From the NCBI GenBank assembly GCA_002441285.1, contig DJVR01000034.1, positions 3,369-67,368 of the forward strand: 64,000 bases of DNA, written 5' to 3'. How positions within the stretch are numbered: the first letter of the stretch is position 1; every line of letters starts with the position of its first letter. The translations under genes and the position numbers were made by a program. Positions 6,471-64,000 of this stretch are shown here, piece by piece. The notes beneath the pieces were generated by a model. That model was not told the DNA's origin. It was given only the letters and a program-made list of their open reading frames with translations, and ran no database searches. Source of the stretch: Candidatus Atribacteria bacterium UBA6251. GTDB taxonomy: Bacteria > Atribacterota > Phoenicimicrobiia > Phoenicimicrobiales > Phoenicimicrobiaceae.

Positions 6471-6484
6471 TATAATAATTTAAA

Positions 6485-6560: not shown

Positions 6561-6567
6561 ATATAAG

Positions 6568-6641: not shown

Positions 6642-6664
6642 TTAAATAAAAGCTTTACTTAAAG

Positions 6665-6740: not shown

Positions 6741-6756
6741 ATAATAATATAATAAG

Positions 6757-6830
<74 letters not shown>

Positions 6831-6842
6831 AGGTTTAGCATC

Positions 6843-6918
6843 TGGAGCGGGAAACGGGTTTCGAACCCGCGACACCCAGCTTGGAAGGCTGGTGCTCTGC
6901 CAACTGAGCTATTCCCGC
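6843..6918 (-). tRNA. tRNA-Gly (anticodon TCC), CCA encoded
   Basis: Reverse complement GCGGGAATAGCTCAGTTGGCAGAGCACCAGCCTTCCAAGCTGGGTGTCGCGGGTTCGAAACCCGTTTCCCGCTCCA. Confidence 0.9.
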
Positions 6919-6919
6919 C

Positions 6920-6996
<77 letters not shown>

Positions 6997-16788: not shown

Positions 16789-17190
16789 TTACCAACACCC
16801 ACGATATCTGCAAAAATGAGTTGTTTCTATATAACCGTTACTAATGATATAAACTTCTGTTTCTCCTTTTTCAAAAGTTGTAACCTCTGCTCCATCTGGT
16901 GCATCTGCAAAATAGATCCTGAAGGTGCCATTTACTTTTATATCCGGGCCAAACTGATAAGTGCCATCACCGAAATCGATAATGATTATCTTAGTATCCT
17001 TGGTAAGGATTCCCGGATCAAATTCAATAGTTACGTTATTTAAACTTACAGATCCACCCTCTTCTGCGCTTACCCACTCTTGTACCATATCTTTCTTCTC
17101 GGCAAAAACAAACGCAGTTAGAGCAAAAAGGGCAAATACAACTATGATAGAGAGTATAATATAGTGTTTCAAAGATTTATTATTTTTCAT
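16789..17190 (-). CDS. Small secreted/membrane-anchored protein of unknown function, riboswitch-controlled
   Basis: 133 aa. N-terminal signal/TM (IILSIIVVFALFALTAFVFA), a beta-rich domain, C-terminal CRYRGCW. An AGGAGGTG RBS immediately follows a GEMM-like aptamer. Confidence 0.6.
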   Translation of the reverse strand: MKNNKSLKHYIILSIIVVFALFALTAFVFAEKKDMVQEWVSAEEGGSVSLNNVTIEFDPGILTKDTKIIIIDFGDGTYQFGPDIKVNGTFRIYFADAPDGAEVTTFEKGETEVYIISNGYIETTHFCRYRGCW

Positions 17191-17194
17191 TCTT

Positions 17195-17290
17195 CACCTC
17201 CTTCGGTAATCCAGCCATCATAGCTATTAAATAGCTTTAGACCTGAGACTTTGCGTCCTACCCTTTCGGATAGTTTGCTATTATCGAGAG
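17195..17290 (-). ncRNA. c-di-GMP-I (GEMM) riboswitch candidate in the 5' UTR of the 16789-17190 gene
   Basis: Minus-strand RNA AUAGCAAACUAUCCGAAAGGGUAGGACGCAAAGUCUCAGGUCUAAAGCUAUUUAAUAGCUAUGAUGGCUGGAUUACCGAAGGAGGUG. This matches the Vc2-type consensus GGCAAACC-N-GAAA-N-GGGACGCAAAGCC-N-GGCCUAAA. The aptamer runs into the RBS. Confidence 0.7.
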
Positions 17291-17405: not shown

Positions 17406-20400
17406 TTATAATTTTATCTCAGCTAAACATTTATTTATCTCTTCAATAAATCTTTTTGTTCCTATCTCATACAATATCTTTCTTGCTTTCTTTAATTTTA
17501 AAGCAGCCTTTTTTAATTCATCCATTCCTTTCAGCATATCTCCCCATTCGTAATAGCTTTCAGCTTCATTAATTCTATCTCCAAATTTTGAATATAGTTT
17601 TATTGCTTGCTGAAAATATAGCTCAGCATCTACATAGTTTTTGCATTCCTTATATAGCCTTCCCTTTAATTTATAAATATCGGCAAAACCTAATTCGTCT
17701 TCTAATTCCTTAAATATTTTTTCTGCCTGGGAAATATAGTATTCCACTTCTTTTAATTCACTTTTTTTTAAATACTCTTCACCTAAATGAATATAATTAA
17801 TTCCTTTATTATAAATATCGCCAATTTTGTCTGCTATCTTTACACTTTCTTTTAAATAATGAATTGCTTTTTCTGAATCTCCTAAGGAAGAGTATGCAAA
17901 ACCAATATTATTCATAATATTAGAAACAACAATAATATTTTTATTCTTTTGAGCAATAGAAAGACTTTCTTGATAAGCTTCAATGGCTTTTTCCCATTTG
18001 CCTAACATATCATAATAAATACCAATGTTGTTTAAAGCCATCGCATAAACATCTAAAGCTTTTATCCTCTGAGAAAGATCAATACTTTCTTTAAGGTAAG
18101 AATATCCGGTAGAGGTATCTCCTTTAAAAATACTGGCTAATCCTATACTTTTCAAAATAATTGCCATTCTTTTTTGGTTATTCATTTCTATAGCAAGAGA
18201 AAGACTTTTTTTGAGATATTCGATTGATTTATCCCATTGTCCCATATCTCCATAAATATTTCCTAAATTAATCAAAATTAAAGATTCATTATCTTGATCT
18301 TTGATTTTCCTACTATATTTTAGAGCTTTATTAAAATTAGTTTTAGCCTCTTTTCTTTTGCCAATAACTGATTGGGAAAAAGCTAATTTATTATATATTT
18401 CTGAAAGTTTTTTTATTTGTTCATTATTCAGTCTATCTTGTGATTCTAGAATTTTAATACTATCTAAATAATAATAAATAGCATTTTTAAAAGCATATAA
18501 AAATTGAGCTTTATCTCCAGCCTTATTTAAGTAAAATAATGCTTTTTGCCAATTATCACTATTTTTAAAATGATAAGCTAATTCTTCTGATTTTGCGTCA
18601 ATCTTGGTAGAATAAATTTCTTCTATAGCTAAACCTATTTTGTTATGCAAATCTTTTCTAACCTCAAAAAGTAGGCTGTTATAAGCTATTTCTTGAATAA
18701 TTGAATGAATAAAAGCAAAATAATTTTTATGGCCAGTTGCAGGAGTAATTTCTTCAATAAACCTATAATTTTGTAATTTCTTTAGCGATTCTAATAAGAT
18801 TTTCTCTTCCTGGTTGATAACCTTTTTTAAAAGTTCTATTTCAATATTTTTTCCTAAAACTGAAGCTTGATATAATATTTCTTTTAAGGCTAAAGGAAGA
18901 AGATCAATTCTTGCGCGAGCAATACTTTGCACTGTATCCGGAATTTCAAAGTGATCAAAAACATCAGAGTATTTGCCTAATTTATCTTTTTCTACTAAAG
19001 ACCATCTTCTTTCCTCTATTCCACTAATAATTTCTTCGATAAACAAAGGGTTTCCATGGGCCATAGAAATTATCTTATCCTTCATTAAAGAAGAAATATA
19101 TTTTTCTTGGTCTAAAAAATTGATTAGCTTTTTAGATTCTTTATTTTTTAATGGTAATAATCTTATTTTTTTAACTTCAAATAAAGATATATTCTTTTTT
19201 AAAGAGTCTTGAAGACTATAAATAATTAAAACAGGATATTCTTTAATTTCTTTGGAAATTTGGGATAAAAATTCTGCAGAAGCAGTATCAATCCATTGCA
19301 TATCTTCAATAATTATAAGAAGAGGTTGTTGTATAGAGAGACTCCAGAATAATTTTTTCATAATCCCGATAAGTAAATCACTTTCTCTTTTAAATTGATT
19401 GGTTATTTTTTCTGTAAAATTAAGATTTGTCGATAAAAATCTTAAGAAATAAGAAGAAGCAAATAATAAGGAAGCATCAACCTCTTTTATCTTATTTTCT
19501 ATTTTCTTTTTAATCTCTTGAGGTTCATCTTCAAATTTTATTTGAAAAATTTTATTAAATATTTCTTTTATAATATAATATGGTTTTGATTCTTCCCAGG
19601 ATGTACAATTTGCTGATAGAAGGATGAATTTTTGGGTGTAAGAATCATTGGTAAGCTCTGAAATTAACCTTGTTTTACCTATTCCAGATTCCCCACTTAT
19701 TTCAACTATTTTTCCTCGCGATTGAAAGGAGTTTTTTAAGACTGCTTTTAAGGTTTTCAACTCTTTTTCTCTACCAATAAATTGAGTATAATATTTTCTT
19801 TTCTGCTCTGACAAAATATCTTTATTCTTTTCTCTCTTTAAAATATAAGCGGTTACTGGATTTTTCTTTCCTTTTATCTTTAATTCACGAGGTTTAGAAA
19901 ATATAAAAAAGTCTTTAATTCTTTGAAAAGTCTTTTCTCCAATTAATATACTACCAGGTGTGGATTTTTCCTGTAAACGAGAAGCCAAGTTTACCGTATC
20001 TCCTATCACCGTAAATTCTTTTCTGCAAGTAGAGCCAATTTCGCCAGAAATACATAATCCAGTATTAATCCCAATCCTTGCTTTCATACTTATTACTTTA
20101 TTTTTATTTTTTATTTTTCCGTTTTTAGCAATAGATTTCATAATCTCCAAACTTGCTCTCGCCGCTCTTTCTGGATCATTTTCATGACTAAAAGGTGTGC
20201 CAAATATAGCCATTAATCCATCACCCAAAAATTTATTAATACTCCCACCGTATTGCTCAATAATTGAAACTATAGGAGCAAAGACACTATTGATTACTTT
20301 GGTAGCCTTTTCGGGATCCATTCTTTCTGCTAAAGTGGTAAATCCATTTATATCAATAAATACTACCGTAGCTTCTCTTCTTTCGCTAGGTAGGCTTTCC

Positions 20401-20495
20401 TTTCCTTCTAATATCCTATAGGTCACCGCTTCTGGAACATAAGGTTTAAACAATTTTAATATTTTATTTTCTTGATTTTGTTTTTTCTTTTTCAT
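17406..20495 (-). CDS. Class III adenylate/guanylate cyclase domain + AAA/STAND ATPase + TPR repeats signalling protein
   Basis: 1029 aa. N-terminal CHD cyclase domain (VVFIDINGFTTLAE...FLGDGLMAIFG...RIGINTG). P-loop ISGESGIGKTRL. Long C-terminal TPR array. Confidence 0.8.
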   Translation of the reverse strand: MKKKKQNQENKILKLFKPYVPEAVTYRILEGKESLPSERREATVVFIDINGFTTLAERMDPEKATKVINSVFAPIVSIIEQYGGSINKFLGDGLMAIFGTPFSHENDPERAARASLEIMKSIAKNGKIKNKNKVISMKARIGINTGLCISGEIGSTCRKEFTVIGDTVNLASRLQEKSTPGSILIGEKTFQRIKDFFIFSKPRELKIKGKKNPVTAYILKREKNKDILSEQKRKYYTQFIGREKELKTLKAVLKNSFQSRGKIVEISGESGIGKTRLISELTNDSYTQKFILLSANCTSWEESKPYYIIKEIFNKIFQIKFEDEPQEIKKKIENKIKEVDASLLFASSYFLRFLSTNLNFTEKITNQFKRESDLLIGIMKKLFWSLSIQQPLLIIIEDMQWIDTASAEFLSQISKEIKEYPVLIIYSLQDSLKKNISLFEVKKIRLLPLKNKESKKLINFLDQEKYISSLMKDKIISMAHGNPLFIEEIISGIEERRWSLVEKDKLGKYSDVFDHFEIPDTVQSIARARIDLLPLALKEILYQASVLGKNIEIELLKKVINQEEKILLESLKKLQNYRFIEEITPATGHKNYFAFIHSIIQEIAYNSLLFEVRKDLHNKIGLAIEEIYSTKIDAKSEELAYHFKNSDNWQKALFYLNKAGDKAQFLYAFKNAIYYYLDSIKILESQDRLNNEQIKKLSEIYNKLAFSQSVIGKRKEAKTNFNKALKYSRKIKDQDNESLILINLGNIYGDMGQWDKSIEYLKKSLSLAIEMNNQKRMAIILKSIGLASIFKGDTSTGYSYLKESIDLSQRIKALDVYAMALNNIGIYYDMLGKWEKAIEAYQESLSIAQKNKNIIVVSNIMNNIGFAYSSLGDSEKAIHYLKESVKIADKIGDIYNKGINYIHLGEEYLKKSELKEVEYYISQAEKIFKELEDELGFADIYKLKGRLYKECKNYVDAELYFQQAIKLYSKFGDRINEAESYYEWGDMLKGMDELKKAALKLKKARKILYEIGTKRFIEEINKCLAEIKL

Positions 20496-36839: not shown

Positions 36840-37262
36840 CTATTTCCTCGCAGTTAAAGGATTATCATATACATTACCATTATCATTGGTATTTCTTCCA
36901 TTAATAGTAAAAACATTATTACTATAAGTAACCCATACTTCTCCAGCAACGGCAGCATCCTCACTTGCTGGGCAAGTAGTTTGTGCGTTTCCAGTTACAG
37001 GATTATATATACCAGCATTTGCAAATACTACAGATGATAGTTTATCAGGTGTATCAATATCGGTTACTGGTCTATCAGCTAATTCTGCTTGAATCAAAGT
37101 TTGAATTGTTCCTGCATTGGCTTTAACTATCGCATTTTTTGCTTTATCCTGCTGGCCAGTATAAAGTCTTAATCCTAAGAGTGCTAATACACCGATGATA
37201 GCTACTACGACCATCAATTCGATTAAGGTAAAACCTTTTTTATTCTTTCTAAAATTATACAT
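36840..37262 (-). CDS. pilA: Major type IV pilin PilA
   Basis: 140 aa. Canonical class III signal KKG|FTLIELMVVVAIIGVLA. Short pilin with a C-terminal Cys. Confidence 0.9.
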   Translation of the reverse strand: MYNFRKNKKGFTLIELMVVVAIIGVLALLGLRLYTGQQDKAKNAIVKANAGTIQTLIQAELADRPVTDIDTPDKLSSVVFANAGIYNPVTGNAQTTCPASEDAAVAGEVWVTYSNNVFTINGRNTNDNGNVYDNPLTARK

Positions 37263-37404: not shown

Positions 37405-37500
37405 ATCGGTAGTTAGACAGTCATAACCCTTTTTTTGAAGAGATTAAGTTATTAGGTTTTAGACCCTAACTTTGCGCCCCATTCTTTCAAATGGTTTACC
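37405..37500 (-). ncRNA. c-di-GMP-I (GEMM) riboswitch candidate, proximal copy upstream of pilA
   Basis: Minus-strand RNA GGUAAACCAUUUGAAAGAAUGGGGCGCAAAGUUAGGGUCUAAAACC... aligns with Vc2 GGCAAACCAUUCGAAAGAGUGGGACGCAAAGCCUCCGGCCUAAACC. Confidence 0.7.
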
Positions 37501-37597
37501 TTTCTCAATTTTTTTATGACCCTGGATTTGATCACCTCCTGTTTTTCTTTTCATCTGCTAGTACATTTTTGTGTCTTATTTAAATAAATAAAAGGAA

Positions 37598-37700
37598 AGT
37601 CGGTAGTTTGGCAGTCATAGCAATCATAGTAATAATTACTTTAGACCCATAACTTTGCGCCCCATCTTTTCAGATAGTTTGCCTTTTTCAACTTTTAAAA
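37598..37700 (-). ncRNA. c-di-GMP-I (GEMM) riboswitch candidate, distal copy upstream of pilA (tandem)
   Basis: Minus-strand RNA AAGGCAAACUAUCUGAAAAGAUGGGGCGCAAAGUUAUGGGUCUAAAG..., the same consensus. About 200 nt upstream of the proximal copy. Confidence 0.7.
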
Positions 37701-37879: not shown

Positions 37880-38332
37880 TCAGGTATTTTCATAAACAAA
37901 GATTTGAAAATCATCACTGTTAAATCTTTGAAATTTTACACTATTTACCGCAGGTTTAACTACAAAGACTCTTTCATTATTATCATGAGGGTCAATTGGG
38001 TAAGCAAAAAAACCTTTTCTCTCTGGATTAAAACTATGGGTAGAACCATAAAAATTTTCGCCATCTTTAAAGATGATGACAATTTTACGTTGAGTAGGAA
38101 TAGGCTGAGGTTGTCCTTCGAAGGTTCTTACTTTTTGATAATCTTTATTCCCTTGATAATCTTTAACAAAAAATACTGCTTTTAATTCATTTACATCTAC
38201 TTCAACTAGTTTATCTCCGTATTCTTCCAAAGGATGAAGGTGAAAAATATCTTTGTTGGGATTAAAGTCAGTAGACCAACCTTTGATGATGGAGCCATCC
38301 TTGTATTTTACTACCATTTTGTTGGGTATCAT
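37880..38332 (-). CDS. Uncharacterized protein with internal tandem duplication (paralog B)
   Basis: 150 aa. Two ~65-aa repeats of the pattern VVKYKDGSIIKGW...F.P / IVIIFKDGENFYG...FFAYPIDP. Paralogous to 38391-38816. Confidence 0.6.
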   Translation of the reverse strand: MIPNKMVVKYKDGSIIKGWSTDFNPNKDIFHLHPLEEYGDKLVEVDVNELKAVFFVKDYQGNKDYQKVRTFEGQPQPIPTQRKIVIIFKDGENFYGSTHSFNPERKGFFAYPIDPHDNNERVFVVKPAVNSVKFQRFNSDDFQIFVYENT

Positions 38333-38390
38333 CTTAATCTCCTTGTCTCCTCTCTAGAATAGAAAGGTTAAAATAAATCCTTTCCTGGTC

Positions 38391-38816
38391 TTAAAAATCG
38401 TTTTCATTAGTTTTTATTTTTACAATAGCTTTACGAACTACAAAAATGCGTTCATTATTATCTTCCGGGTCAAGGGGAAAGACAAAAAATCCATCTTCAT
38501 ATCTTCCAAAATTATAACAGGTGCCATAGATCTCTTCCCCATCTTCAAAAAAAATAACTACTTTTTTTTGACTGGGTGTTACCTTGAATCTTTCATCATC
38601 AAAGTTTCTTACTTTCTGATAATCTTTATTACCGAAAAAATCTTTAACAAAAAAGATTGCTTTTAGGGGAGCAAATACGAGATTAAGAGTCTCCTTTGAG
38701 CTATATTCCATCAAGGGGTAAAGGGTAAAGAAATGACGTTCCGGACTAAAATCTTCTACCCAACCTTTAATAATTTCTCCATTTTTATATTTTACTACTA
38801 CCTTCTTTTTCAACAT
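38391..38816 (-). CDS. Uncharacterized protein with internal tandem duplication (paralog A)
   Basis: 141 aa. Same two-repeat architecture (VVVKYKNGEIIKGW... / VVIFFEDGEEIYG...FFVFPLDP). Confidence 0.6.
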   Translation of the reverse strand: MLKKKVVVKYKNGEIIKGWVEDFSPERHFFTLYPLMEYSSKETLNLVFAPLKAIFFVKDFFGNKDYQKVRNFDDERFKVTPSQKKVVIFFEDGEEIYGTCYNFGRYEDGFFVFPLDPEDNNERIFVVRKAIVKIKTNENDF

Positions 38817-38826
38817 AGCAAATTTC

Positions 38827-39543
38827 CTAAAGCTTAATATTTTTTAATTCCTTTCTTAAGGACTTAATGGCTTCTTTTTTAATGCGAGAAACCTGCTTCT
38901 GAGAAAGATCTAGAGCCTGAGCGGTTTTGGTCTGAGTTAAATCTTTAAGGAAGATATAATTAACCACTTTACGCTGGATATCTTTTAATTTGTTTAGAGC
39001 CATTTCTAAGGTAATTAAATCTTCTATAGGTAATTTAAAGCTCTGATAATGATCATTCTTTATTTTAGAAATAACCGGTAAATCCCGGTAGTCATACATT
39101 CTATTTTCCTGGTCAATAGAAACAGTATGCACTGCTTCCCTAGCCTTTAAAATCTCTTTTACTCCTTCTTCGGTAAGATTGAATTGAGCAGCAATTTGTT
39201 TAAGAGAAGGCATTTGGTTATTTTCTTTTTTGTATTTAAGAATATACTGATCGATTTTTTTATTTAATTCCATTACCCAGTGAGGAATTTTTATAGTTTG
39301 ATGCTTGTCCCGAATATAATGACGAATCTCTCCCGAGATAAGCCAGGAGGCATAAGTTTCAAATTTTACCTTCCGGGCTGGATCATAAAGGTTTAAGGCA
39401 TTAATTAATCCAATATAACCTACCTGCTCTAAATCCTCCAAAGGTTCTCCAGAATTGATAAATTTAGCTGCAATACTACGCACTAAAGGTTTATATTTTA
39501 AAATTATTTCATCATTTATTTCTTGAGTAGTTGACATTACCAC
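38827..39543 (-). CDS. Group-3 sigma-70-family sigma factor (FliA/SigB/SigF-like), paralog 2
   Basis: 238 aa. Region 2 (DLEQVGYIGLINALNLYDP...FETYASWLISGEIRHYIRD) and region 4 HTH (LTQTKTAQALDLSQKQVSRIKKEAI). Confidence 0.8.
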   Translation of the reverse strand: MVMSTTQEINDEIILKYKPLVRSIAAKFINSGEPLEDLEQVGYIGLINALNLYDPARKVKFETYASWLISGEIRHYIRDKHQTIKIPHWVMELNKKIDQYILKYKKENNQMPSLKQIAAQFNLTEEGVKEILKAREAVHTVSIDQENRMYDYRDLPVISKIKNDHYQSFKLPIEDLITLEMALNKLKDIQRKVVNYIFLKDLTQTKTAQALDLSQKQVSRIKKEAIKSLRKELKNIKL

Positions 39544-39594
39544 AAACTCATCATCCTTTTTTAAATTTACCCTTAAAAAAAGATTTTTTGGGGG

Positions 39595-40290
39595 TTATTC
39601 TTTTTCTAATTCTTCCTTTAAATCTTCCAGAGTCCTTTTTTTAATTCGAGAAACTTGCCGTTGACTCAAACCCAGTTTCTGCGCTACTTTGGTTTCGGTT
39701 AAATCCATTTCAAAAAGATAATAAATTACTTTTTTTTGAATATTTTTTAATTTTTGCACTGCCATCTGTAAGGTGATAATATCTTCAATAGGCAATCTAA
39801 AAGTTTGATAGTTTGTACTTTTGATACTACCAATTTTAGGAAAACTATCAGTTAATTCCACATTTCCATCTTTTTGGTCTAGAGAAATAGTCTTTGCAAG
39901 ATTATAAATTTTAAGAATTTCTTTTATTCCTTCTTCCGCAATATTAAATTTTTTTGATATTTCGCTTAAAGAAGGATCAGTTTTATTTTCTTCTTGATAA
40001 AAGAAGATATATTCATTAATTCTTTTATTCAACTTTCTCATCCATTCTGGTATTTTTATAGCTGATTTTTTATCTCTTAGATAATGTTGTATTTCACCAG
40101 AGATAAGCCAGGAAGCATAAGTCTCAAATTTAACCTTCTTAGCAGGATTATAAAGATTATAAGCATTAATCAGACCAATATAACCTACCTGTTCTAAATC
40201 TTCCAGAGGTTCTCCTGTATATTTAAATTTAGCGGCAATTCTTTTAACCAATGGTCGGTATTTTTCAATCTGTTTATCATTTATTTTCAC
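39595..40290 (-). CDS. Group-3 sigma-70-family sigma factor (FliA/SigB/SigF-like), paralog 1
   Basis: 231 aa. Same region 2/region 4 signatures as 38827-39543 (YASWLISGEIQHYLRD, LSQRQVSRIKKRTL). Confidence 0.8.
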   Translation of the reverse strand: MKINDKQIEKYRPLVKRIAAKFKYTGEPLEDLEQVGYIGLINAYNLYNPAKKVKFETYASWLISGEIQHYLRDKKSAIKIPEWMRKLNKRINEYIFFYQEENKTDPSLSEISKKFNIAEEGIKEILKIYNLAKTISLDQKDGNVELTDSFPKIGSIKSTNYQTFRLPIEDIITLQMAVQKLKNIQKKVIYYLFEMDLTETKVAQKLGLSQRQVSRIKKRTLEDLKEELEKE

Positions 40291-40404: not shown

Positions 40405-41616
40405 TTATTTTATTAAATTAACCATATTAAAGATGGGTAAATACATCGCAATAATCATTACTCCAACTGTACCGCCAATGACTAACATCATCAAAGGTTC
40501 AATAATGGAAGTTAATCTTTCCACACTGCGATCTACTTCTTCGTCATAGAATTTAGAGACATTGATCAACATTTCTTCTAACTCTCCACTCTCTTCACCT
40601 ACTAGAATCATCTGGGTAACCATAGGTGGAAATACACCGCTGGCAGCCAAAGGAGAGGAAATACTCTGACCTTCTTTTATTCTGGTTTTAGCTCCCAATA
40701 CTGCCTTAGAGATAACCAGATTACCGATAGCATTAGAAGAAACGGTTAAGGCTTCAATGATAGGAACACCGCTCTTGATTAAGGTACCTAAGATACGGGA
40801 AAACCTAGAAATAGCACTTTTACGGTTAATATCCCCTATAATAGGAGCATTTAACTTAAATCGATCAAAGTTTTGTCTTCCATTAGGAGTTTTAATATAG
40901 GCATATAAGCCAAAACTTAGAGCAATGATTAAACCAAAAAATAAATACCAGAATTTTCTAAACAAAATGGTTAGGGTTACAAAAAAATTAGTAAGAGCGG
41001 GAAGCTCTCCTCCAAACTGAGCGAATATTCCTACAAATTGTGGCAGGACAAAGGTAAGCATAAAGATAGCCATCAGAACAGCTGCTCCAATGATAAAGCT
41101 AGGATAACTCATTGCGGATCTGATCTTCTGCCTTAGGGCAAATTCTTTTTCCATTAAATCTGCAATCTTATTTAAAATTTCATCCAGAACCCCTCCTACC
41201 TCACCAGCTTTTATCATACTGATATATAATTCGGAAAATACGTTGGGGTGCTTAGCCATAGCATCAGCCAAGGTTGAACCACCTTCTACGTCAGTTTTAA
41301 CTGTGTTGATAATTCTGGACAAGGCTTTATTTTCTACTTGCTCAGTTAATATATTTAAAGAATTTACTAAAGTCAAACCAGCATTAACCATAGTAGCAAA
41401 CTGACGGTAAAAAATAGTTAAATCCCGAAATTTGATCCGATTAAAGAGAGATATCTCAACAGATAGAAATGTACTTTTTCTTTTTTCTTGAATGGAAGAA
41501 ATAAAATAATTCATTTCCCTTAGACGAGAGACTACGGCTGATTTGTTTTCTCCCTCCATTGTTCCGGTAAAAATTTTACCTGATCTATCTCTAACTTTAT
41601 ACACAAAAGTAGCCAT
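40405..41616 (-). CDS. pilC: Type IV pilus platform protein PilC (GspF family)
   Basis: 403 aa. Two T2SS-F repeats, three TM helices, N-terminus MATFVYKVRDRSGK. Confidence 0.9.
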   Translation of the reverse strand: MATFVYKVRDRSGKIFTGTMEGENKSAVVSRLREMNYFISSIQEKRKSTFLSVEISLFNRIKFRDLTIFYRQFATMVNAGLTLVNSLNILTEQVENKALSRIINTVKTDVEGGSTLADAMAKHPNVFSELYISMIKAGEVGGVLDEILNKIADLMEKEFALRQKIRSAMSYPSFIIGAAVLMAIFMLTFVLPQFVGIFAQFGGELPALTNFFVTLTILFRKFWYLFFGLIIALSFGLYAYIKTPNGRQNFDRFKLNAPIIGDINRKSAISRFSRILGTLIKSGVPIIEALTVSSNAIGNLVISKAVLGAKTRIKEGQSISSPLAASGVFPPMVTQMILVGEESGELEEMLINVSKFYDEEVDRSVERLTSIIEPLMMLVIGGTVGVMIIAMYLPIFNMVNLIK

Positions 41617-41832: not shown

Positions 41833-42978
41833 TTATACTTTGATAATTTCTTTTAGAACATTGATTATTTTTGGGTCATATTTTTTCCCGGTAAAAGAGA
41901 AAAATCTTTTTAATGCTTCTTTGTCGGGTAAAGAATTTTCTACATAATTATTCTTGCTATTATTATAAAGTATATTAGTAAAATCTTCAACCACAGCTAT
42001 AATCCGAGAAGCAAGAGGGATTTCTTCTCCTTTTAGCCCCTTGGGATAACCTGATCCGTCATAATTTTCGTGATGATGGAGGATAATGGGTGCTAAATCT
42101 TTGAATAAATGTATCTGTTTAAGCATATTTGCTCCAATTATAGGATGCATACTTATTTCTTTTTGAATTATAGGAGTTAGGTTTTCTCTTGGTCTTGGTT
42201 TGAAGCTAAGATCTATTTTATGGTTAGTTTTTAATTTACCAATATTATGTAAAAGTGCGGCATAATATAAGTTATTATATTCTTTCCCGACTATTCCTAA
42301 TTTATTACCAACCTGGGTAGCTAATCGTGCTACTTGCATAAAATAGCCTTTGGGACCAAGAGGGTCACTCTCTATGGCTTGAATCAATATCTCCATAATA
42401 TTTACAAAATAATTATTTAAATCTCTGATAATATTAGCATTTCTTAAAACGACTACAGCTTGATTAGCAAAAGAGGTTAAGGTCTGTTCATCATTTTTAT
42501 CGAAAAGTTTATTCTCTTTTTTATTGACTACCTCCATTACCCCTAATATTTCTTTCTCTAATATTAAAGGCACACAAATAATTGATTTAGTTTTAAATTT
42601 TGTTTTTTCATCAAATATTTTCTTCCATCGCTTATCTTTGGATACATCATTAACTATCAGAGAAATACCATTTTCAGCAACCCATCCAGCAATTCCTTCT
42701 CCAACTTTAACTTTATAGCCTCTTATTTCCTTGCTCTTTTTACCTAAACTTGCTTGAAAAGATAATTCTCTTTTCTCTTGGTCTAACAGCAATATAGAAG
42801 CAGCTTCTCCTTCTACGATTATAGTGGCATAATTAATTATCTTGTTTAACAAAATATCTAAATCTATAGTATGGGTTAAATCAAAAGTTATTTTATTTAA
42901 GGCATCTAATTGTAATAACTTCTTTTTGAGTTCACTAAATTTGTTATCTTCAACTATATTATTTTTATCATCAATCAT
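41833..42978 (-). CDS. GAF-domain + HD-GYP c-di-GMP phosphodiesterase
   Basis: 381 aa. N-terminal GAF. C-terminal HD-GYP signatures (LLHNIGK, HHHENYDGSGYPKGL). Confidence 0.8.
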   Translation of the reverse strand: MIDDKNNIVEDNKFSELKKKLLQLDALNKITFDLTHTIDLDILLNKIINYATIIVEGEAASILLLDQEKRELSFQASLGKKSKEIRGYKVKVGEGIAGWVAENGISLIVNDVSKDKRWKKIFDEKTKFKTKSIICVPLILEKEILGVMEVVNKKENKLFDKNDEQTLTSFANQAVVVLRNANIIRDLNNYFVNIMEILIQAIESDPLGPKGYFMQVARLATQVGNKLGIVGKEYNNLYYAALLHNIGKLKTNHKIDLSFKPRPRENLTPIIQKEISMHPIIGANMLKQIHLFKDLAPIILHHHENYDGSGYPKGLKGEEIPLASRIIAVVEDFTNILYNNSKNNYVENSLPDKEALKRFFSFTGKKYDPKIINVLKEIIKV

Positions 42979-43000: not shown

Positions 43001-44752
43001 TTAGGAGGTAACTACTCTTAAAACTTCGCTTATGGTAGTAATCCCTGCACAAACTTTTTTTATACCATCCTCCTTTAAGGTACACATACCTTCTTCAAGT
43101 GCAACTTCCTTAAGTTTTTTATTGTTTACGTTCTTAGTAATCAATTCTCTTATAGTGTCAGTGATAATCATTAACTCGAAGAGGGCAATTCTACCCTTAT
43201 ATCCTGTGTGCTTACAATTAGAACACCCTTCACCTTGGTATAAAGTTATCTCCGAACTTCTTATCTCATAGTCATTCATTATTTCTTGTATTTCGGGAGT
43301 TACTTCTAATACTTTTTTACATTGGGGGCAGATTCTTCTTACCAATCTTTGCGCAATAATACCAATTACTGAAGAAGAGATTAGAAATGGTTCAATTCCC
43401 ATATCGATTAATCTTATCACTGAACCGGGAGCATCGTTAGTATGTAGAGTACTTAGCACTAAATGCCCGGTAAGTGCTGCCTGGACTGCAATTTCGGCAG
43501 TTTCTTTATCTCTAATCTCTCCTACTAGCATAATATCAGGGTCCTGACGCAAAAAACTTCTTAAACCTGCCGCAAAAGTAAGTCCTATTTTTGGTTTAGC
43601 TTGAATCTGACTAATTCCCTTTAATCTATATTCTACTGGGTCTTCAATAGTCATAATCTTTTTTTCACTGGAATTCAATAAATTTAAAGCGGTATATAGG
43701 GTAGTAGATTTTCCACTTCCAGTAGGACCAGTAACCAGAATAATACCATTTGGCTTACTAATTAAAGAAACAAATTTGGGAAGAATATCTTTGGACAAAC
43801 CTAAAGAGTCTAAGTCTAATAAAATGCTCGCTGGATCTAAGATTCTTAATACTACACTCTCTCCATTTACAGTAGGGATAGTAGAAACTCTAATATTTAT
43901 ATTTCTTCCCCCCACTTTAACTTGAATTCTACCATCTTGCGGTAATCTTCTTTCGGCAATATCTAAATCAGACATTATTTTTATTCTAGAAATAACAGCT
44001 AAATGTAAATTTTTGGGTAGGGTCATTACATCGATTAATATCCCATCAATGCGATAACGCACTCTAAGGCTTTCTTCTCCAAATAATTCTATATGAATAT
44101 CACTGGCTTTCTCTTTAACTGCTCTCAAAATAATCAGATTAACCAGGGCAATTACTGGCGCTTCTTCGCTTTTACTTACTTCCGCAATATCACTAATTTC
44201 TTTTTCATCTTCTTTTAAAACGGTAACTTGCATATTTTCCAGTTTACCAATTACCTGATCCCATTCTTCCGTAATTCCATATACTTCATCTAAAGCTCGA
44301 TTAATATCTTCACCAAAAGCTAATACCGAATCAATATCATATCCTAATCTAATTTTTAATTCATCATGCGCAAAAACATCTAAAGGGTTTGCCATAGCTA
44401 CCAGTAATCTGTCTCTCTCTTTATCAATAGCAATAAGCTGATGTCTTCTAGACATCTCTTCAGGAATTAAGACTACTATGGTAGGATCAATATTTATTTC
44501 ATTTAAATTTACGTATTTTACCCCAATTTCATCAGCTAAAGCAAGCATCATTTCGTCTTTTTTAAGTATACCCAAATCAATAATTACCTTTTGTAATTCA
44601 TTACCACTATTTTTTTGAATTTTAATAATTCTATCTAATTGCTCATCATTGATTAAATTTCTCTTATATAAGATATCTAACAGGAAATTGCCCGTGATAC
44701 TTTTACTTATGTTTTTTTTCATTCTTCCTCTCCTAATGAATGCAAAGTGCAA
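43001..44752 (-). CDS. pilB: Type IV pilus assembly ATPase PilB (GspE family)
   Basis: 583 aa. N-terminal GSPII_E_N domains, Walker A GPTGSGKSTTLY, tetracysteine CPQC...CSNC. Confidence 0.9.
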   Translation of the reverse strand: MHFAFIRRGRMKKNISKSITGNFLLDILYKRNLINDEQLDRIIKIQKNSGNELQKVIIDLGILKKDEMMLALADEIGVKYVNLNEINIDPTIVVLIPEEMSRRHQLIAIDKERDRLLVAMANPLDVFAHDELKIRLGYDIDSVLAFGEDINRALDEVYGITEEWDQVIGKLENMQVTVLKEDEKEISDIAEVSKSEEAPVIALVNLIILRAVKEKASDIHIELFGEESLRVRYRIDGILIDVMTLPKNLHLAVISRIKIMSDLDIAERRLPQDGRIQVKVGGRNINIRVSTIPTVNGESVVLRILDPASILLDLDSLGLSKDILPKFVSLISKPNGIILVTGPTGSGKSTTLYTALNLLNSSEKKIMTIEDPVEYRLKGISQIQAKPKIGLTFAAGLRSFLRQDPDIMLVGEIRDKETAEIAVQAALTGHLVLSTLHTNDAPGSVIRLIDMGIEPFLISSSVIGIIAQRLVRRICPQCKKVLEVTPEIQEIMNDYEIRSSEITLYQGEGCSNCKHTGYKGRIALFELMIITDTIRELITKNVNNKKLKEVALEEGMCTLKEDGIKKVCAGITTISEVLRVVTS

Positions 44753-44756: not shown

Positions 44757-45518
44757 TTATCTCATTTTTAAAACTAATCCGATAAAAATAGCCAGTGAAG
44801 TATTAATAATTCTTTTTAAATTATATACCTTTTCTATCTTTTCTGCACTTATTTGGTAATAAATAAAGTTAGCTATTATAAAACCTATAAAAATAATGGC
44901 TATATATTTATCATCTAAATATTGAGTTGAGATAGTTAATAATAAACGATAAGATTTATCGATGGTCTGATTTTCTGGTATTTTAATCTTTATTTTTTTG
45001 GGTACTAATGATGTAAGAGATTTATCTGTAATATCTTCTTTTTCTTTAATATGCAAAAGTAAAATAGGAATAAAAAATACTGAAATAATATATCCGCTTA
45101 AATTGATAATAAATATATCATTATTATAAAATTCTATTAAATAATTTAAAAAAGTACTATTAAAGTTATAATTTAAAAAATAATTTTTATTAAAAATAAT
45201 ACTCAGGATAAAAATTATTCCCAGATGCAAGATTTGATCAAATAAAAAAATTCCTATTGTCAGATTATTATCTTTTTTTGAATGTTCTAATTTTACTTTA
45301 TCAATAATAGTATGGGAAATAAAAATAATCATAAGAAGCAAAATATAGGAAAATTCTTCTAAATAGGGAAAGGTTAAGAGAACAGAAAAGATTAATACTA
45401 TCAGACTATGCAGTAAAACTCCCCATTCAGTATTCATTTTTATATTGAATATTTGCTTGGTTTGTAAAGGAAAATCAGCAATTATATGCGCCAATAACAA
45501 TCTATAAAATAGTGACAT
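44757..45518 (-). CDS. Polytopic membrane protein (DUF3307-like)
   Basis: 253 aa. Hydrophobic, with the motif LLAHIIADFPLQT. Confidence 0.4.
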   Translation of the reverse strand: MSLFYRLLLAHIIADFPLQTKQIFNIKMNTEWGVLLHSLIVLIFSVLLTFPYLEEFSYILLLMIIFISHTIIDKVKLEHSKKDNNLTIGIFLFDQILHLGIIFILSIIFNKNYFLNYNFNSTFLNYLIEFYNNDIFIINLSGYIISVFFIPILLLHIKEKEDITDKSLTSLVPKKIKIKIPENQTIDKSYRLLLTISTQYLDDKYIAIIFIGFIIANFIYYQISAEKIEKVYNLKRIINTSLAIFIGLVLKMR

Positions 45519-51471: not shown

Positions 51472-53187
51472 TTAACCTGCTACTCTTAGAACTTCTTCTA
51501 TAGTAGTAATCCCTTGAAGAGCTTTCTCTAAACCACTTTCCCTCAAGGTTTTCATCCCTTTTTTAATGGATTCTTCCTTGATTATGTCACTGGAAGTTTT
51601 GGATAGAATTAGTGAGCGTATCCTCTCATCTAGCTCCAGGATTTCATAGATAGAAGTTCTACCATAATAACCAGTATCTTTACATAAGGGACAACCTGCT
51701 CCTCTATATAGCTTTACCTGGTTATTCTGATCCAAATCTAATTCTTTTAATATCTCTGGAGGAGGAGGATATTCTTCTTTGCATTTTTCACAAATCACTC
51801 TCACCAATCTTTGGGCTAATACCCCAATTACTGAGGAAGAAATGAGGAAAGGTTCAATGCGCATATCTACCAACCTGGTTAATGCACTGGCTGCATCATT
51901 GGTATGTAAAGTACTTAAAACCAGGTGCCCCGTTAAGGCTGCCTGAATAGCTATCTCAGCAGTTTCTCGATCTCTTATCTCTCCAACCATAACAATATCT
52001 GGATCCTGTCTTAAAATTGATCTTAAGGCATTAGCAAAGTTTAAATTTATCTTCGGTAGAATTTGAATCTGATTAATACGGTTCAGCTTATATTCAACTG
52101 GATCTTCAATGGTAATGATATTTTTCTGTTTATAGTCCATTCTGTTTAAAGCCGCATATAAGGTTGTAGTTTTGCCACTTCCAGTAGGCCCAGTAATTAA
52201 AATAATCCCATAAGATTTGTTAATCATATTTTTAAATTGATTAAGTTGAGGAGTGGAAAAACCAAGTTGTTCTAACTCGATTAAACCTTTACTTTTATCC
52301 AGTAATCGTAATACTGTTTTTTCACCATAAATGGTGGGGATAGTAGAAACTCTAATATCCACCTCTTTACTACCAAATTGAACCTGGAAACCACCATCCT
52401 GGGGAAGCCGCCTTTCTGCAATATCCATCTTGGATAATATCTTTATTCGAGAAACAATAGCGGATTTTACTTTGAAAGGTAAATTTCTGATATCATGTAA
52501 GATTCCATCAATACGAAATCTTACCAGTATCCCTTTTTCATTAGGTTCAAGATGGATATCACTAGCCCGGTCTTTTACCCCTTGCACAATTAACATATTT
52601 ACTAATTGAATTACCGGTGCTTCTCTACTGATAGCTTCTAATTCTCGGAGGTCTTCTTCCCTCTCTTCCTCTTTAAGGATTACCTCGGTATCTAACTTAT
52701 TAAGAATATCATCATATTCTCCTAATTTATAATAACTATTAATGGTATTAATGATATCCTCTTCATCAGATAATACACATTTGACTTTATTTTTCTTAGT
52801 AATGCCTTTTACAAAATCAATGGCATGCACATCAAAGGGATTGGCCATAGCGATTACTAATTCATCTTTATCTACGCTGAGTGGAATTAATTTAAATTGT
52901 AGGGCAATTTTCTCTGGAATAACAGAAATTATTTCCGGATCTATGACCAGTTTGGTTAGATCTACATACTCAGTTTCGTAGATATGCTGCAAGACTTGAT
53001 AAAGCTCTTCCTTAGTTAAAGCTCCCATCTCAATTAAAATCTCCCCTATCTTTTTATTATTTCCTTTTTGTTGAGATTTGAGAGCTTTTTCTAATTGTTG
53101 AGTGGTAATAATTCCTTGGCCAACCAATATTTCTCCCAATTTTTTATTGGAATATTCTTTTCTTATTCTTTCCATAATCATCACCAA
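51472..53187 (-). CDS. Second GspE/PilB-family secretion ATPase (paralog)
   Basis: 571 aa. GSPII_E_N domain, Walker A GPTGSGKTTTLY, CEKC...CPLC. Confidence 0.85.
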   Translation of the reverse strand: MVMIMERIRKEYSNKKLGEILVGQGIITTQQLEKALKSQQKGNNKKIGEILIEMGALTKEELYQVLQHIYETEYVDLTKLVIDPEIISVIPEKIALQFKLIPLSVDKDELVIAMANPFDVHAIDFVKGITKKNKVKCVLSDEEDIINTINSYYKLGEYDDILNKLDTEVILKEEEREEDLRELEAISREAPVIQLVNMLIVQGVKDRASDIHLEPNEKGILVRFRIDGILHDIRNLPFKVKSAIVSRIKILSKMDIAERRLPQDGGFQVQFGSKEVDIRVSTIPTIYGEKTVLRLLDKSKGLIELEQLGFSTPQLNQFKNMINKSYGIILITGPTGSGKTTTLYAALNRMDYKQKNIITIEDPVEYKLNRINQIQILPKINLNFANALRSILRQDPDIVMVGEIRDRETAEIAIQAALTGHLVLSTLHTNDAASALTRLVDMRIEPFLISSSVIGVLAQRLVRVICEKCKEEYPPPPEILKELDLDQNNQVKLYRGAGCPLCKDTGYYGRTSIYEILELDERIRSLILSKTSSDIIKEESIKKGMKTLRESGLEKALQGITTIEEVLRVAG

Positions 53188-56119: not shown

Positions 56120-56340
56120 AAAATTATCCTGCTTAAAATGAAAAAATAAAACCCCGCTATGCCGTGTGCTTTAGGTTTTGATACCTGTCCTCAAACAGGT
56201 GGGTATCTACCTAAATGCTTGATGTTTCCGTGTTAACTTAAGCAGTTAACATTTGGTATTTACCAACCTCGCCAGAGGGGTAATGCACCTTAGGCCTACA
56301 TTCCACATTTAGAGATCGATTCCCTATTTAAAATTTGTTG
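56120..56340 (-). ncRNA. Candidate structured ncRNA (possibly 6S RNA/SsrS) upstream of MTHFS
   Basis: A 450-bp gene-free interval, locally GC-richer than its surroundings. Multiple stable hairpins on the minus strand (GUUAACUGCUUAAGUUAAC; GCAUUUAGGUAGAUACC...GGUAUCAAAACCUAAAGC). 6S RNA is frequently encoded immediately upstream of the MTHFS (ygfA) gene. No conserved primary sequence could be verified by eye. Confidence 0.25.
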
Positions 56341-56493
56341 GCTCAAAACTTCATTAGACATCACGAACATAGCAGGGTAGCTTTATTTTGATCTGCTCTA
56401 ATATTAGCATATTTTTATTCTTTTTTCAATAATCCTGGCTATTACACTTGCTCATGAAAAGTAAAAATCATATTATTTAAAAATTATGATAAT

Positions 56494-61018: not shown

Positions 61019-62083
61019 TTAGTAGTTATAATTATAATGTTCTTTTTCAAATACTTTTTTATCAATTGCTTTTCTTAAGGCATCTTCTCGACTAATCTTT
61101 CCCTCCATTAACAAGTCTTTCAAGGATTGATCCAGGCTTTGCATACCATCTTTTTTACTAATTTGAATAATTGATTGAATCTGATAGGTCTTATTTTCTC
61201 TAATCAAGTTTTTTATAGCTGGAGTAGCAAACATTATCTCCAAGGCTGGGGCTCTTCCTTTTTCATCTAGAGTAGGCAAAAGGGTTTGAGCTACTACACC
61301 TAATAAAGCACCAGCTAATTGCATTCTTACTTGATTCTGTTGATGAGGAGGAAATACGTCAATTATTCTATCGATAGTATCTGATACACTGATAGTATGT
61401 AAAGTAGAAAATACTAAATGACCAGTTTCAGCAGCAGTAAGAGCCATAGAAATAGTTTCAAGATCCCTCATCTCTCCTACCAGTATTACATCAGGGTCCT
61501 CTCTTAATGCACTACGTAAAGCATCAGAAAAGCTTTTAGTATGAGCCCCTATTTCTCTTTGAGTAATTAAACAGTTTTTATGTTGATGAATAAATTCAAT
61601 AGGGTCTTCAATGGTAATAATATTATCATAACGTTGAGTATTAATTATATCTATTAAGGTGGCTAGGGTGGTAGATTTTCCACTTCCCGTAGGTCCAGTG
61701 ATTAAAACAAATCCTTTATCTTTTTCACAAAAATTAGCTAGAACAGAAGGTAATCCTAATTCAGATAGAGATTTAATCTTTTCCGGAATTAATCGAAAAG
61801 CTCCTCCTTCTCCTCTCCGGTGCTTAAATAAATTTACTCGAAAACGGGCAACACTCTCTAATTCATATGACAAATCTAATTCCCCATTAGTTTCGAAATC
61901 TTTTTTTTGATTTTCATCCAAAATACTATAAATTAAACGGTGCACCTCTTCTTTAGTTAATTCGGGGAACTTCAATTTATTTAGTTTTCCATTAATTCTT
62001 ATTACTGGGGGTATACCAACATTAAGATGTAAATCAGAAGCATCATTTTCTTTGGCAAGAGTTAATAAATCATTTAAAATCAT
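61019..62083 (-). CDS. pilT: Twitching-motility retraction ATPase PilT
   Basis: 354 aa. DASDLHL, Walker A GPTGSGKSTTLA, PilT AIRNLIRE motif. Confidence 0.9.
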   Translation of the reverse strand: MILNDLLTLAKENDASDLHLNVGIPPVIRINGKLNKLKFPELTKEEVHRLIYSILDENQKKDFETNGELDLSYELESVARFRVNLFKHRRGEGGAFRLIPEKIKSLSELGLPSVLANFCEKDKGFVLITGPTGSGKSTTLATLIDIINTQRYDNIITIEDPIEFIHQHKNCLITQREIGAHTKSFSDALRSALREDPDVILVGEMRDLETISMALTAAETGHLVFSTLHTISVSDTIDRIIDVFPPHQQNQVRMQLAGALLGVVAQTLLPTLDEKGRAPALEIMFATPAIKNLIRENKTYQIQSIIQISKKDGMQSLDQSLKDLLMEGKISREDALRKAIDKKVFEKEHYNYNY

Positions 62084-62124: not shown

Positions 62125-62598
62125 TCATTTAAAGAGTAAATCTAAGGACTCATTAATATTTTTATAAGAAGCCAATACAATCCTTATCTTTTTACCGAAA
62201 ATCTGTTGGATGACCATCTTGGCTTCCTCATCGGTGGGATCAGCCATAGCTATAGTAATTTCGTTATCTAACTTAATTAAAGGTAAAAAATTAAATTTTC
62301 TCATCGTATATTCTGGTACTTTCCTGGACAATTCATGATCAATACTCTCTAAATTAATATGCATATAAGGAAGATCTAACTGTCTTCCTAAAGTCCAGTT
62401 TATTTCATCCTGGCTCACCCATCCTTTTTCCATTAAAATTTCTCCTATTCTTTTTTCGGTACTCTTTTGAATGTCTAGAGCTGCTTTTAACTGTTGGGGT
62501 GTGATTATTTTATAATTAATTAAAATCTCGCCTAATTTTGGTACCTCTTTGTTGATCTTTTCTATTTTTTCCATCCGATGATATCCTCCTGTTATCAA
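62125..62598 (-). CDS. Stand-alone GspE N-terminal (T2SSE_N / MshEN-like) domain protein
   Basis: 157 aa. The only similarity is to the N-terminal domain of GspE/MshE ATPases (KLGEILINYKIITPQQLKAALDIQK...RIGEILMEKGWVSQDEI). No ATPase domain. Confidence 0.6.
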   Translation of the reverse strand: MITGGYHRMEKIEKINKEVPKLGEILINYKIITPQQLKAALDIQKSTEKRIGEILMEKGWVSQDEINWTLGRQLDLPYMHINLESIDHELSRKVPEYTMRKFNFLPLIKLDNEITIAMADPTDEEAKMVIQQIFGKKIRIVLASYKNINESLDLLFK

Positions 62599-62986: not shown

Positions 62987-64000
62987 TTACTTTTGGTAAA
63001 ATTCTTTTTTATCTATCGCTCTTAATATAGCTTCATCTCGACTAATTTTCCCTTCAATAAGCATACTTTTTAAAGATTGATCTATACTGATCATTCCATC
63101 ACTTCTACCCATCTGAATAATAGAAGCAATCTGATGAATTTTATTCTCTCTGATAATATTACGGACAGCTGGAGTAGCTATCATTAATTCAATAATAGGC
63201 ACCCTTCCTCCTCCATCAATAGTGGGTAATAGAGTCTGAGCAACAATACCTAAAAGTGATTCGGCAATTTGTGTTCTAATTTGATTTTGCTGGTGGGGTG
63301 GAAAGACATTAATAATTCTTTCTACGGTTTCTGCGGCATTATTAGTATGCAGGGTAGAAAATACTAAATGACCAGTTTCAGCGGCAGTAACCGCCATCGA
63401 GATAGTTTCTAAATCTCTCATTTCACCTACTAAAATAACATCTGGATCTTCTCTTAATGCGCTACGCAAAGCGCTGGCAAAAGAATGAGTATGTGATCCA
63501 ATTTCTCTTTGATCTATAACACAATTTTTATGTTGATGAATAAATTCTATAGGATCTTCGATAGTAATAATATGTTTATATTGTTCTTTATTAATCATAT
63601 CGATTAAAGTAGCCAAGGTAGTAGTTTTACCACTGCCAGTGGGACCGGTAATTAAGACAAAACCTTTGGGCCTTTTAGTTAAATAACTTAATTCTTTCGG
63701 TAGATTTAATTCTTCCAGTGTCTTTATCTTTTCTGGAATCAATCTAAAGGCAGCTGATTCTCCATTACGGGTACGAAAAATATTCACTCTAAAGCGAGCA
63801 ACATTTTTTAATTCGTAAGAAAAATCTAATTCATAATATTTAATATATTTAGTCAGTTGTTCTTTATCCAGGATACTAAAGATCATTTCGTGAACGTCTT
63901 CTGAAGTTAATTCGGGTAGGTTTAGTTTTTTTAAATCACCATTAATACGGAGAATTGGAGGTACTCCTACTGAAATATGCAAATCGGAAGCGTCTCTCTC
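62987..64000 (-). CDS. PilT/PilU-family ATPase, second paralog (N-terminus beyond the window end)
   Basis: Walker A GPTGSGKTTTLA, AVRNIIRE. The frame stays open to position 64000 (...ERDASDLHISVGVPP), so the gene is truncated by the window edge. Confidence 0.85.
   Translation of the reverse strand, partial: ERDASDLHISVGVPPILRINGDLKKLNLPELTSEDVHEMIFSILDKEQLTKYIKYYELDFSYELKNVARFRVNIFRTRNGESAAFRLIPEKIKTLEELNLPKELSYLTKRPKGFVLITGPTGSGKTTTLATLIDMINKEQYKHIITIEDPIEFIHQHKNCVIDQREIGSHTHSFASALRSALREDPDVILVGEMRDLETISMAVTAAETGHLVFSTLHTNNAAETVERIINVFPPHQQNQIRTQIAESLLGIVAQTLLPTIDGGGRVPIIELMIATPAVRNIIRENKIHQIASIIQMGRSDGMISIDQSLKSMLIEGKISRDEAILRAIDKKEFYQK

Follow-up and report, generated by a model that had tools for sequence, protein, structure and literature searches.

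The 64,000-nucleotide (nt) stretch analysed here, called the window throughout, belongs to contig DJVR01000034.1 of Candidatus Atribacteria bacterium UBA6251 (GCA_002441285.1), phylum Atribacterota / Caldatribacteriota, and carries an extensive supercluster of type IV pilus genes, among them pilQ, pilO, pilN, pilM and those for minor pilins and a prepilin peptidase. Between the genes for the platform protein PilC and for an extension ATPase, PilB1, lies a gene whose product combines a GAF domain with an HD-GYP-like domain (Table 1). An earlier note on this DNA had placed a GAF and HD-GYP gene between pilC and pilB, with coordinates, domains and gene order that Pfam bears out, and had called the product an HD-GYP phosphodiesterase, part of a cyclic di-GMP (c-di-GMP) circuit. 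HD-GYP proteins are usually annotated and counted as c-di-GMP phosphodiesterases, which is probably wrong for the subfamily described here. Its degenerate catalytic residues, together with its position next to pilB in several phyla, make an adaptor likelier than a c-di-GMP-degrading enzyme.

The open reading frame begins with an ATG eight bases 3' of a GAGGTG Shine-Dalgarno sequence. Pfam assigns residues 39-178 of the product to GAF_2 (E 2.8e-17, over the gathering threshold) and residues 197-371 to HD_5, the HD-GYP model (E 1.8e-28; 99.8 bits against a cut-off of 27.2). The best match in the PDB is PmGH of Persephonella marina (PERMA_0986, 4MCW; E 3.2e-30), which aligns over residues 35-375. 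Both proteins have an N-terminal GAF domain and a C-terminal HD-GYP domain on one cytoplasmic polypeptide of similar length (about 350-400 amino acids in the PmGH class), the architecture of the GAF-HD-GYP family in the census of Galperin & Chou. The HHExxDGxGYP signature loop is retained at residues 301-312 as HHHENYDGSGYP, the string quoted in the earlier note, and H302, H303, E304, G308, G310 and P312 are invariant in a family alignment of 16 sequences (A1). AlphaFold2 with this alignment returned a mean predicted local distance difference test score (pLDDT) of 44.6, and the model was unusable and left uninterpreted.

PmGH is an active tri-iron c-di-GMP phosphodiesterase whose eight metal ligands are E185, H189, H221, D222, H250, H276, H277 and D305 (PMC4159591). 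Alanine at H189, H221, D222, H250, H276 or H277 essentially abolishes its activity, alanine at D183, K225 or D308 does likewise, and E185A and D305A reduce it markedly (PMC4159591). R314 and K317 hydrogen-bond one guanine of c-di-GMP (PMC4159591), and the Rxx(K/R) motif, found in about 88% of HD-GYP domains, sets which nucleotide is read (bioRxiv 10.1101/600031). The residues of the window protein at the eight ligand positions are, in order, G, Y, H, N, H, H, H and E. In PmGH numbering the substitutions are E185G, H189Y, D222N, D305E and D308T, the last two corresponding to E331 and T334. In place of the H...HD signature we find Y212, H244 and N245, and Asn245 is also present in P0001 and P0003. 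The C-terminal region in which DxxD and Rxx(K/R) would be expected reads VVEDFTNILYNNSKNNYVEN; here the R314-P-Y-K317 segment of PmGH is replaced by the unrelated NNSKNNYVEN, without Rxx(K/R). PmGH D183 has no aligned counterpart. What the two proteins share is H221, H250, H276, H277, K225 and the HHExxDGxGYP loop.

These changes predict that phosphodiesterase activity has been lost, so the enzymatic reading of the earlier note is not supported; degenerate catalytic residues, which that note had itself named as grounds for abandoning it, are present at sequence level. The HN form of the HD dyad, the other catalytic substitutions and the second pilB gene of the window (pilB2) had all escaped it. 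We considered and rejected sequencing error as the source of HN, because the codons are identical in the independent NCBI metagenome-assembled genome (MAG) L081, whose protein is 88% identical, and a JGI contig encodes the same residues. The Y212 and N245 substitutions are therefore common to three independent assemblies.

Between the window gene and its L081 orthologue, the ratio of nonsynonymous to synonymous substitution rates (dN/dS) of the HD-GYP-like domain is 0.17, compared with 0.04 for pilB1 and 0.06 for pilC. The domain is under clear purifying selection, looser than that on the components of the pilus machine, and it is conserved for something besides canonical chemistry. Gene decay is rejected by dN/dS values of 0.17-0.21. 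The protein thus combines the loss of essential metal ligands with a fold held under purifying selection.

The same losses extend through the close family. The 120 nearest database proteins, almost all of them from Atribacterota, show about 67% identity; counted with the query (121 sequences), all have Gly or Ala at the E185 position, 111 have Glu at the D305 position and none has Asp at the D308 position. An Arg at the R314 position occurs in only five, so that Rxx(K/R) is essentially gone.

We scanned one genome per GTDB species and obtained 80 loci. The gene directly 5' of the GAF/HD-GYP gene encodes PilB at all six Atribacterota loci and at nine in Elusimicrobiota, with gaps of 15-96 nt across the two phyla, and one Nitrospirota locus has the pair in split form. 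In this last, sole split case (L007, 3132-4006), a HepT/MNT nucleotidyltransferase toxin-antitoxin pair separates pilB from the GAF/HD-GYP gene. A profile search of 1.84 billion representatives in a 50%-clustered library was dominated by giant multi-GAF proteins, and no family size could be obtained from it. Five short representatives from this library carry the subfamily signature; four had usable genomic context, and in three of these PilB is encoded directly 5', at distances of 3, 25 and 34 nt. DUF3307 comes before pilB at one of the three, as in Atribacterota. Overall, adjacency to pilB covers 20 loci, with two exceptions, in Atribacterota, Nitrospirota, Elusimicrobiota and further uncultured lineages. 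The fourth representative with usable context, on the 7.6-Mb contig L086 (5001-6098), is encoded away from pilB; its neighbours are cheA, cheX/cheC and a cheY-like receiver gene, and pilM is some 4 kb distant, which could point to a tie with pilus chemosensing in its host.

In Elusimicrobiota, unrelated metabolic genes (NadA; B12-binding/MeaB) come after the pilB and GAF/HD-GYP pair, so the conserved unit is pilB with the GAF/HD-GYP gene and not pilB-X-pilC. PilC was accordingly rejected as the functional partner, given that only the adjacency to pilB is kept outside Atribacterota. In the window, the GAF/HD-GYP gene is transcriptionally packed with pilB1 and the gene for a DUF3307 multi-pass membrane protein: DUF3307 is followed after 4 nt by pilB1, and 22 nt past the pilB1 stop comes the start codon of the GAF/HD-GYP gene. 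pilC follows 216 nt further downstream. The trio of DUF3307, pilB and GAF/HD-GYP genes recurs in Atribacterota and on an unrelated metagenome contig (L087), and the DUF3307 association was seen at L001, L003, L005, L006, L081, L087 and L016. The last of these is a Dictyoglomaceae MAG in which DUF3307 lies 3' of a canonical GAF-HD-GYP gene. For pilB1, the mechanically called TTG start at 44752 is probably wrong; the ATG at 44722, after AGGAGAGG, gives 573 amino acids, the length of the L081 orthologue.

Within one scan we compared 17 pilB-linked proteins with 45 unlinked GAF-HD-GYP proteins, and the latter are canonical as judged by their residues. D183 is kept in 3 of 17 linked and 43 of 45 unlinked proteins, D308 in none of the linked and 37 of the unlinked, and K225 in 8 and 38, respectively. 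The HD dyad is intact in 12 of the linked and in every unlinked protein, and RPY(K/R) is missing from all of the linked and kept in nearly all of the unlinked. In four Elusimicrobiota proteins HD is replaced by HK, and H250 and H277 are gone as well; within Atribacterota, the forms HN, YD and ND are found on different branches. As these variants sit on separate branches, the HD dyad has been lost several times independently. In a neighbour-joining tree from about 330 alignment columns, the linked proteins form a clade in 181 of 200 bootstraps together with L010, an unlinked Latescibacterota relative that carries the E/T signature; neither PmGH nor any canonical protein belongs to it. Full-text searches on HD-GYP with pilB, pilC or pilT, or with Atribacterota, turned up no account of a pilB-adjacent GAF-HD-GYP subfamily, and PilB is unmentioned in the Galperin & Chou census of HD-GYP architectures.

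The c-di-GMP site of MshEN domains consists of two copies of (R/K/L)LGxx(L/V/I)(L/V/I)xxG(L/V/I)(L/V/I)xxxxLxxxLxxQ, and a PilF domain with one good copy and one copy conserved at 45% does not bind (PMC11731258). In PilB1 the corresponding segments, FLLDILYKRNLI... and ELQKVIIDLGIL..., depart from this consensus: Gly3 is missing in both, and motif II has Glu at position 1. A degenerate MshEN pattern was found in 13 of 13 partner PilBs examined elsewhere, one of them without the N-terminal helical bundle. The loss in PilB1 is consistent with, and not proof of, sensing supplied in trans. Two other proteins of the window do conform. In PilB2, KLGEILVGQGIITTQQLEKALKSQ and KIGEILIEMGALTKEELYQVLQHI are an almost perfect fit, and in the stand-alone MshEN protein, which the earlier note had correctly placed between two pilT genes, KLGEILINYKIITPQQLKAALDIQ and RIGEILMEKGWVSQDEINWTLGRQ match the consensus around a 5-residue spacer. 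The credible protein-level c-di-GMP sites, as read from these motifs, are hence PilB2 and the stand-alone MshEN protein, and not PilB1.

For the GAF domain, the best PDB matches are binders of cyclic mononucleotides (cNMPs): Lcd1 (5W10, 1.4e-18), which binds cyclic AMP (cAMP), PDE2A (3.7e-17), CyaB2 (4.7e-17) and PDE5/6/10. GAF domains from outside phosphodiesterases and cyclases (PtsP, MCP, NifA-like) match at 1.5e-9 or weaker. The cNMP-GAF motif is present as NKKENKLFDKNDE at residues 152-164, with N152, K153, F159, D163 and E164 invariant in A1. The ligand would most likely be cAMP or cyclic GMP (cGMP). A possible source lies in the window as a cyclase, STAND and TPR protein, which the earlier note had also picked out and which we find as Guanylate_cyc + AAA_16 + TPR. 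It has the full class III set of motifs (FIDINGFT, KFLGDG, RIGINTG and IGDTVNLASR) with the Lys/Asp substrate pair, and its best PDB match is the adenylate cyclase CyaB (3R5G, E 4.7e-32), so cAMP is plausibly made.

Control by c-di-GMP is clearest at the RNA level. All three GEMM riboswitch candidates of the earlier note exceed the threshold of the Rfam c-di-GMP-I model (RF01051, gathering score 35), and each match spans model positions 1-87. Two of them form a tandem before a type IV pilin gene, through which the locus is under c-di-GMP control, and a riboswitch at this place is kept in both relatives examined, as a tandem in L081 and singly in L003. Folding revealed no convincing terminator or hairpin sequestering the Shine-Dalgarno sequence 3' of the two pilin aptamers (z-scores 0.29 and -1.53). 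Control is probably also exerted through PilB2 and the stand-alone MshEN protein, to go by their motifs. The earlier proposal of c-di-GMP wiring at both the RNA and protein levels therefore holds for RNA, with its conserved tandem riboswitches, and is plausible for protein in the case of PilB2 and MshEN. No GGDEF, EAL or PilZ domain was found by Pfam in any open reading frame of at least 100 amino acids in the window, in agreement with the earlier statement that GGDEF and EAL genes are absent. The third riboswitch precedes a 133-amino-acid protein (16789..17190) whose N-terminus is a signal or anchor sequence and which matches no Pfam family; its gene lies directly 3' of the cyclase-STAND-TPR gene and is followed by that of a DUF1232 protein.

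Several known systems offer comparisons. PmGH shares the architecture of the window protein and differs in being an active enzyme that groups with the unlinked canonical proteins. PA2572 of Pseudomonas aeruginosa, a YN-GYP protein, is enzymically inactive in vivo and still regulatory (PMC3749722). It likewise has Asn for the Asp of the HD dyad (YNIGK, compared with HNIGK in the window protein), but it belongs to the REC-type response regulators, carries a further C-terminal domain and has neither a GAF domain nor a known pilB link. In DvhD of Desulfovibrio vulgaris, HD has become SQ and HH has become MN, and the protein binds c-di-GMP without metal and without hydrolysis, with R650 and Y652 contacting the ligand at the canonical site (PMC13090378). 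The likeness is an HD-GYP fold without the full set of metal ligands, with a ligand-driven conformational switch in DvhD (PMC13090378). DvhD is a PAS-linked membrane receptor of a Lap-like adhesin system that has lost both HD and HH, whereas the window protein is cytoplasmic, GAF-linked and pilB-linked and keeps HH.

FimX, with its degenerate domains, regulates the motor ATPase PilB by protein-protein contact, with PilZ as a possible intermediary. This system and the RpfG-GGDEF-PilZ-PilT/U system, both from the Pseudomonas and Xanthomonas group of examples, resemble the present case in that proteins with c-di-GMP turnover domains steer pilus ATPases by contact. RpfG uses its GYP motif in the protein-protein contacts that control pilus motors (PMC3749722, PMC4159591), and although it is an active enzyme, its control of the motors runs through contacts (PMC3749722). 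These systems are built on GGDEF-EAL or REC-HD-GYP proteins, are proteobacterial and have their genes away from pilB, whereas here a GAF-HD-GYP protein is encoded in the pilB operon. Tlr0485 of Thermosynechococcus, a cAMP-activated phosphodiesterase, likewise joins HD-GYP to a GAF domain acting as cAMP sensor, and the type IV pili of its host respond to both cAMP and c-di-GMP; it differs in being catalytically active and is likened here by architecture, not residue by residue. The use of degenerate turnover domains as adaptors is already an established principle.

We lean, with some room for doubt, towards a non-catalytic, GAF-gated regulator of PilB1, a reading that includes a c-di-GMP receptor as a variant. 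The GAF domain would bind a small ligand, most likely cAMP or cGMP, and binding would shift the conformation of a dimeric HD-GYP-like module, much as in DvhD. The retained HHExxDGxGYP loop on the surface would then contact PilB1 and tune pilus extension. With PilB1 lacking an MshEN c-di-GMP site of its own, the GAF/HD-GYP protein may supply nucleotide sensing in its stead, and the signal could enter as a cyclic mononucleotide bound by the GAF domain, through residual binding of c-di-GMP in the degenerate pocket, or by both routes.

If the protein were instead an active, GAF-regulated c-di-GMP phosphodiesterase, it would lower c-di-GMP locally and so tune PilB, PilC and the riboswitch-controlled pilin. 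We think this unlikely, even though the protein is a clear HD_5/HD-GYP homologue with PmGH architecture, keeps the signature loop, K225 and four His ligands, sits in a locus that otherwise responds to c-di-GMP through riboswitches and has in Tlr0485 an active precedent. H189, D222 and D308 are all substituted, and alanine at each of these kills PmGH (PMC4159591); E185 is lost, D305 is Glu, D183 is unaligned, the guanine-reading Rxx(K/R) is missing, and PA2572, with Asn at the same Asp position, is inactive (PMC3749722). Repeated, independent loss of catalytic residues across the pilB-linked clade is, moreover, the pattern expected without selection on catalysis. A hydrolase with a remodelled metal centre and another substrate (3',3'-cGAMP, another cyclic di- or oligonucleotide, or pGpG) can draw on the fact that changes in Rxx(K/R) reprogram HD-GYP specificity, PmxA (RxxQ) being specific for cGAMP, and on the use of Tyr, Asn and Glu as metal ligands by other phosphoesterases. 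We nevertheless hold it to be very improbable: the motif Arg is missing too and not just the fourth position, D308 and D183, both needed in PmGH, are absent, and the variable positions of the clade follow no new consensus, which speaks against a defined active site of a new kind. As to the variant within the regulator reading, a non-catalytic receptor of the DvhD or FimX kind would signal to PilB1 from its degenerate c-di-GMP pocket, with the GAF domain structural or secondary. Metal-free binding without hydrolysis in DvhD is a precedent (PMC13090378), a receptor in trans would be useful where PilB1 and all partner PilBs examined lack an MshEN site, and the rest of the locus responds to c-di-GMP. 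We still see it as rather doubtful, because the protein has no counterpart of the guanine-contacting Rxx(K/R) residues of PmGH and Tyr285 of the GYP motif varies within the family (Y, C, F or S).

Several points weigh against a non-catalytic, GAF-gated regulator as well. Five of the eight metal-ligand positions are kept (H244, H278, H302, H303 and, conservatively, E331), along with K248. Tyr and Asn serve as metal ligands elsewhere among phosphoesterases, which leaves room for residual or altered catalysis. H189 is kept in 100 and D222 in 117 of the 121 family members, so the family may include weak enzymes. The Fisher p-values for linked versus unlinked proteins, down to about 1e-9, are descriptive only and ignore shared ancestry. 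In other bacteria, PilBs without the MshEN motif and without such a partner are common. Binding of a cNMP by the GAF domain is only a lead: NK..F..D discriminates weakly because PmGH, which is not known to bind a cNMP, also carries it. Contact with PilB, finally, is something we infer from gene adjacency alone.

Taken to its full extent, the regulator reading yields a proposal that we offer tentatively, as less likely than not to hold. An undescribed module of two genes, often three with DUF3307, would occur in several phyla, in which an HD-GYP protein devoid of catalysis serves as a dedicated allosteric regulator, GAF-gated and probably cAMP-sensing, of a PilB that lacks an MshEN c-di-GMP site of its own. 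In the window, the cAMP signal would then reach the pilus by way of PilB1, and the c-di-GMP signal by way of the riboswitches, PilB2 and the free MshEN protein. The position next to pilB points to a specific job, regulating the pilus-extension motor. If this is true, HD-GYP would be the third domain family, after degenerate GGDEF-EAL (FimX) and PilZ, to couple nucleotide signals to pilus ATPases, and it would open a way into the control of pili in Atribacterota, a major phylum of the subsurface that has hardly been cultured. Several layers of second-messenger control are packed into this one locus: tandem riboswitches on the pilin gene, MshEN sites in one PilB of the two and in the stand-alone protein, and an adenylate cyclase together with a cNMP-type GAF domain.

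Table 1 Features of the window discussed in the text (positions count from the first letter of the window).
Feature	Position	Strand	Evidence or remark
GAF + HD-GYP-like gene	41833..42978	-	381 amino acids; Pfam; PDB best match PmGH 4MCW
GAF domain, residues 39-178	42445..42864	-	Pfam GAF_2; NK-x5-F-x3-DE at residues 152-164
HD-GYP-like domain, residues 197-371	41866..42390	-	degenerate catalytic centre; PmGH alignment
HHExxDGxGYP signature loop, residues 301-312	42043..42078	-	retained
Codon TAT, Tyr212	42343..42345	-	position of PmGH metal ligand His189; same codon in L081
Codon AAT, Asn245	42244..42246	-	position of Asp222 of the HD dyad (LLHNIGK); same codon in L081
pilB1, extension ATPase (T2SSE + MshEN)	43001..44722	-	TIGR02538 pilB, E 3.8e-190
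DUF3307 multi-pass membrane protein	44757..45518	-	4 nt before pilB1
pilC, platform protein	40405..41616	-	T2SSF x2; NCBIfam PilC, E 4e-124; syntenic in Atribacterota only
pilB2, second PilB-type ATPase (T2SSE + MshEN)	51472..53187	-	orthologue in L081
Stand-alone MshEN protein	62125..62598	-	157 amino acids; between PilT-type ATPases 61019..62083 and 62987..63982
c-di-GMP-I aptamer 1 of tandem, before pilin gene	37599..37693	-	76.8 bits; kept in L081 and L003
c-di-GMP-I aptamer 2 of tandem, before pilin gene	37405..37510	-	60.4 bits; kept in L081
Type IV pilin (N_methyl motif), downstream of tandem	36840..37262	-	Pfam
Third c-di-GMP-I riboswitch	17202..17289	-	84.0 bits
Class III adenylate cyclase + STAND (AAA_16) + TPR	17406..20495	-	possible source of GAF ligand

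Within the pilus operon, between pilC and the riboswitch-pilin unit, lie two sigma factor genes of the SigB/F/G type (38827-40290, minus strand) and then two DUF6982 genes (37880-38816, minus strand), an arrangement kept as two plus two in L081 and one plus one in L003. The AlphaFold2 model of DUF6982 (pLDDT 85) has two tandem Sm/Tudor-like beta-barrels, with a best PDB match at E 0.019. A role as a PilZ-like c-di-GMP receptor was rejected, there being no PilZ similarity and no significant PDB match; the DUF6982 proteins might be regulators of their cognate sigma factors. Directly 3' of the pilin gene, and kept there in L003 and L081, is the gene for a membrane protein with Wzy_C (O-antigen ligase-like) and TPR domains (34724-36835, minus strand), which suggests a pilin O-glycosylase of the TfpO/PilO type.

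Elsewhere in the window there is a 6S RNA (56147-56381, minus strand; 97 bits) that has 63 nt inserted with respect to the Rfam model, and seven tRNA genes are clustered at 6389-6996 on the minus strand. All called genes of the 64-kb window lie on the minus strand, GC skew is negative throughout and G+C is about 31%, which fits a single replichore with strong gene co-orientation.

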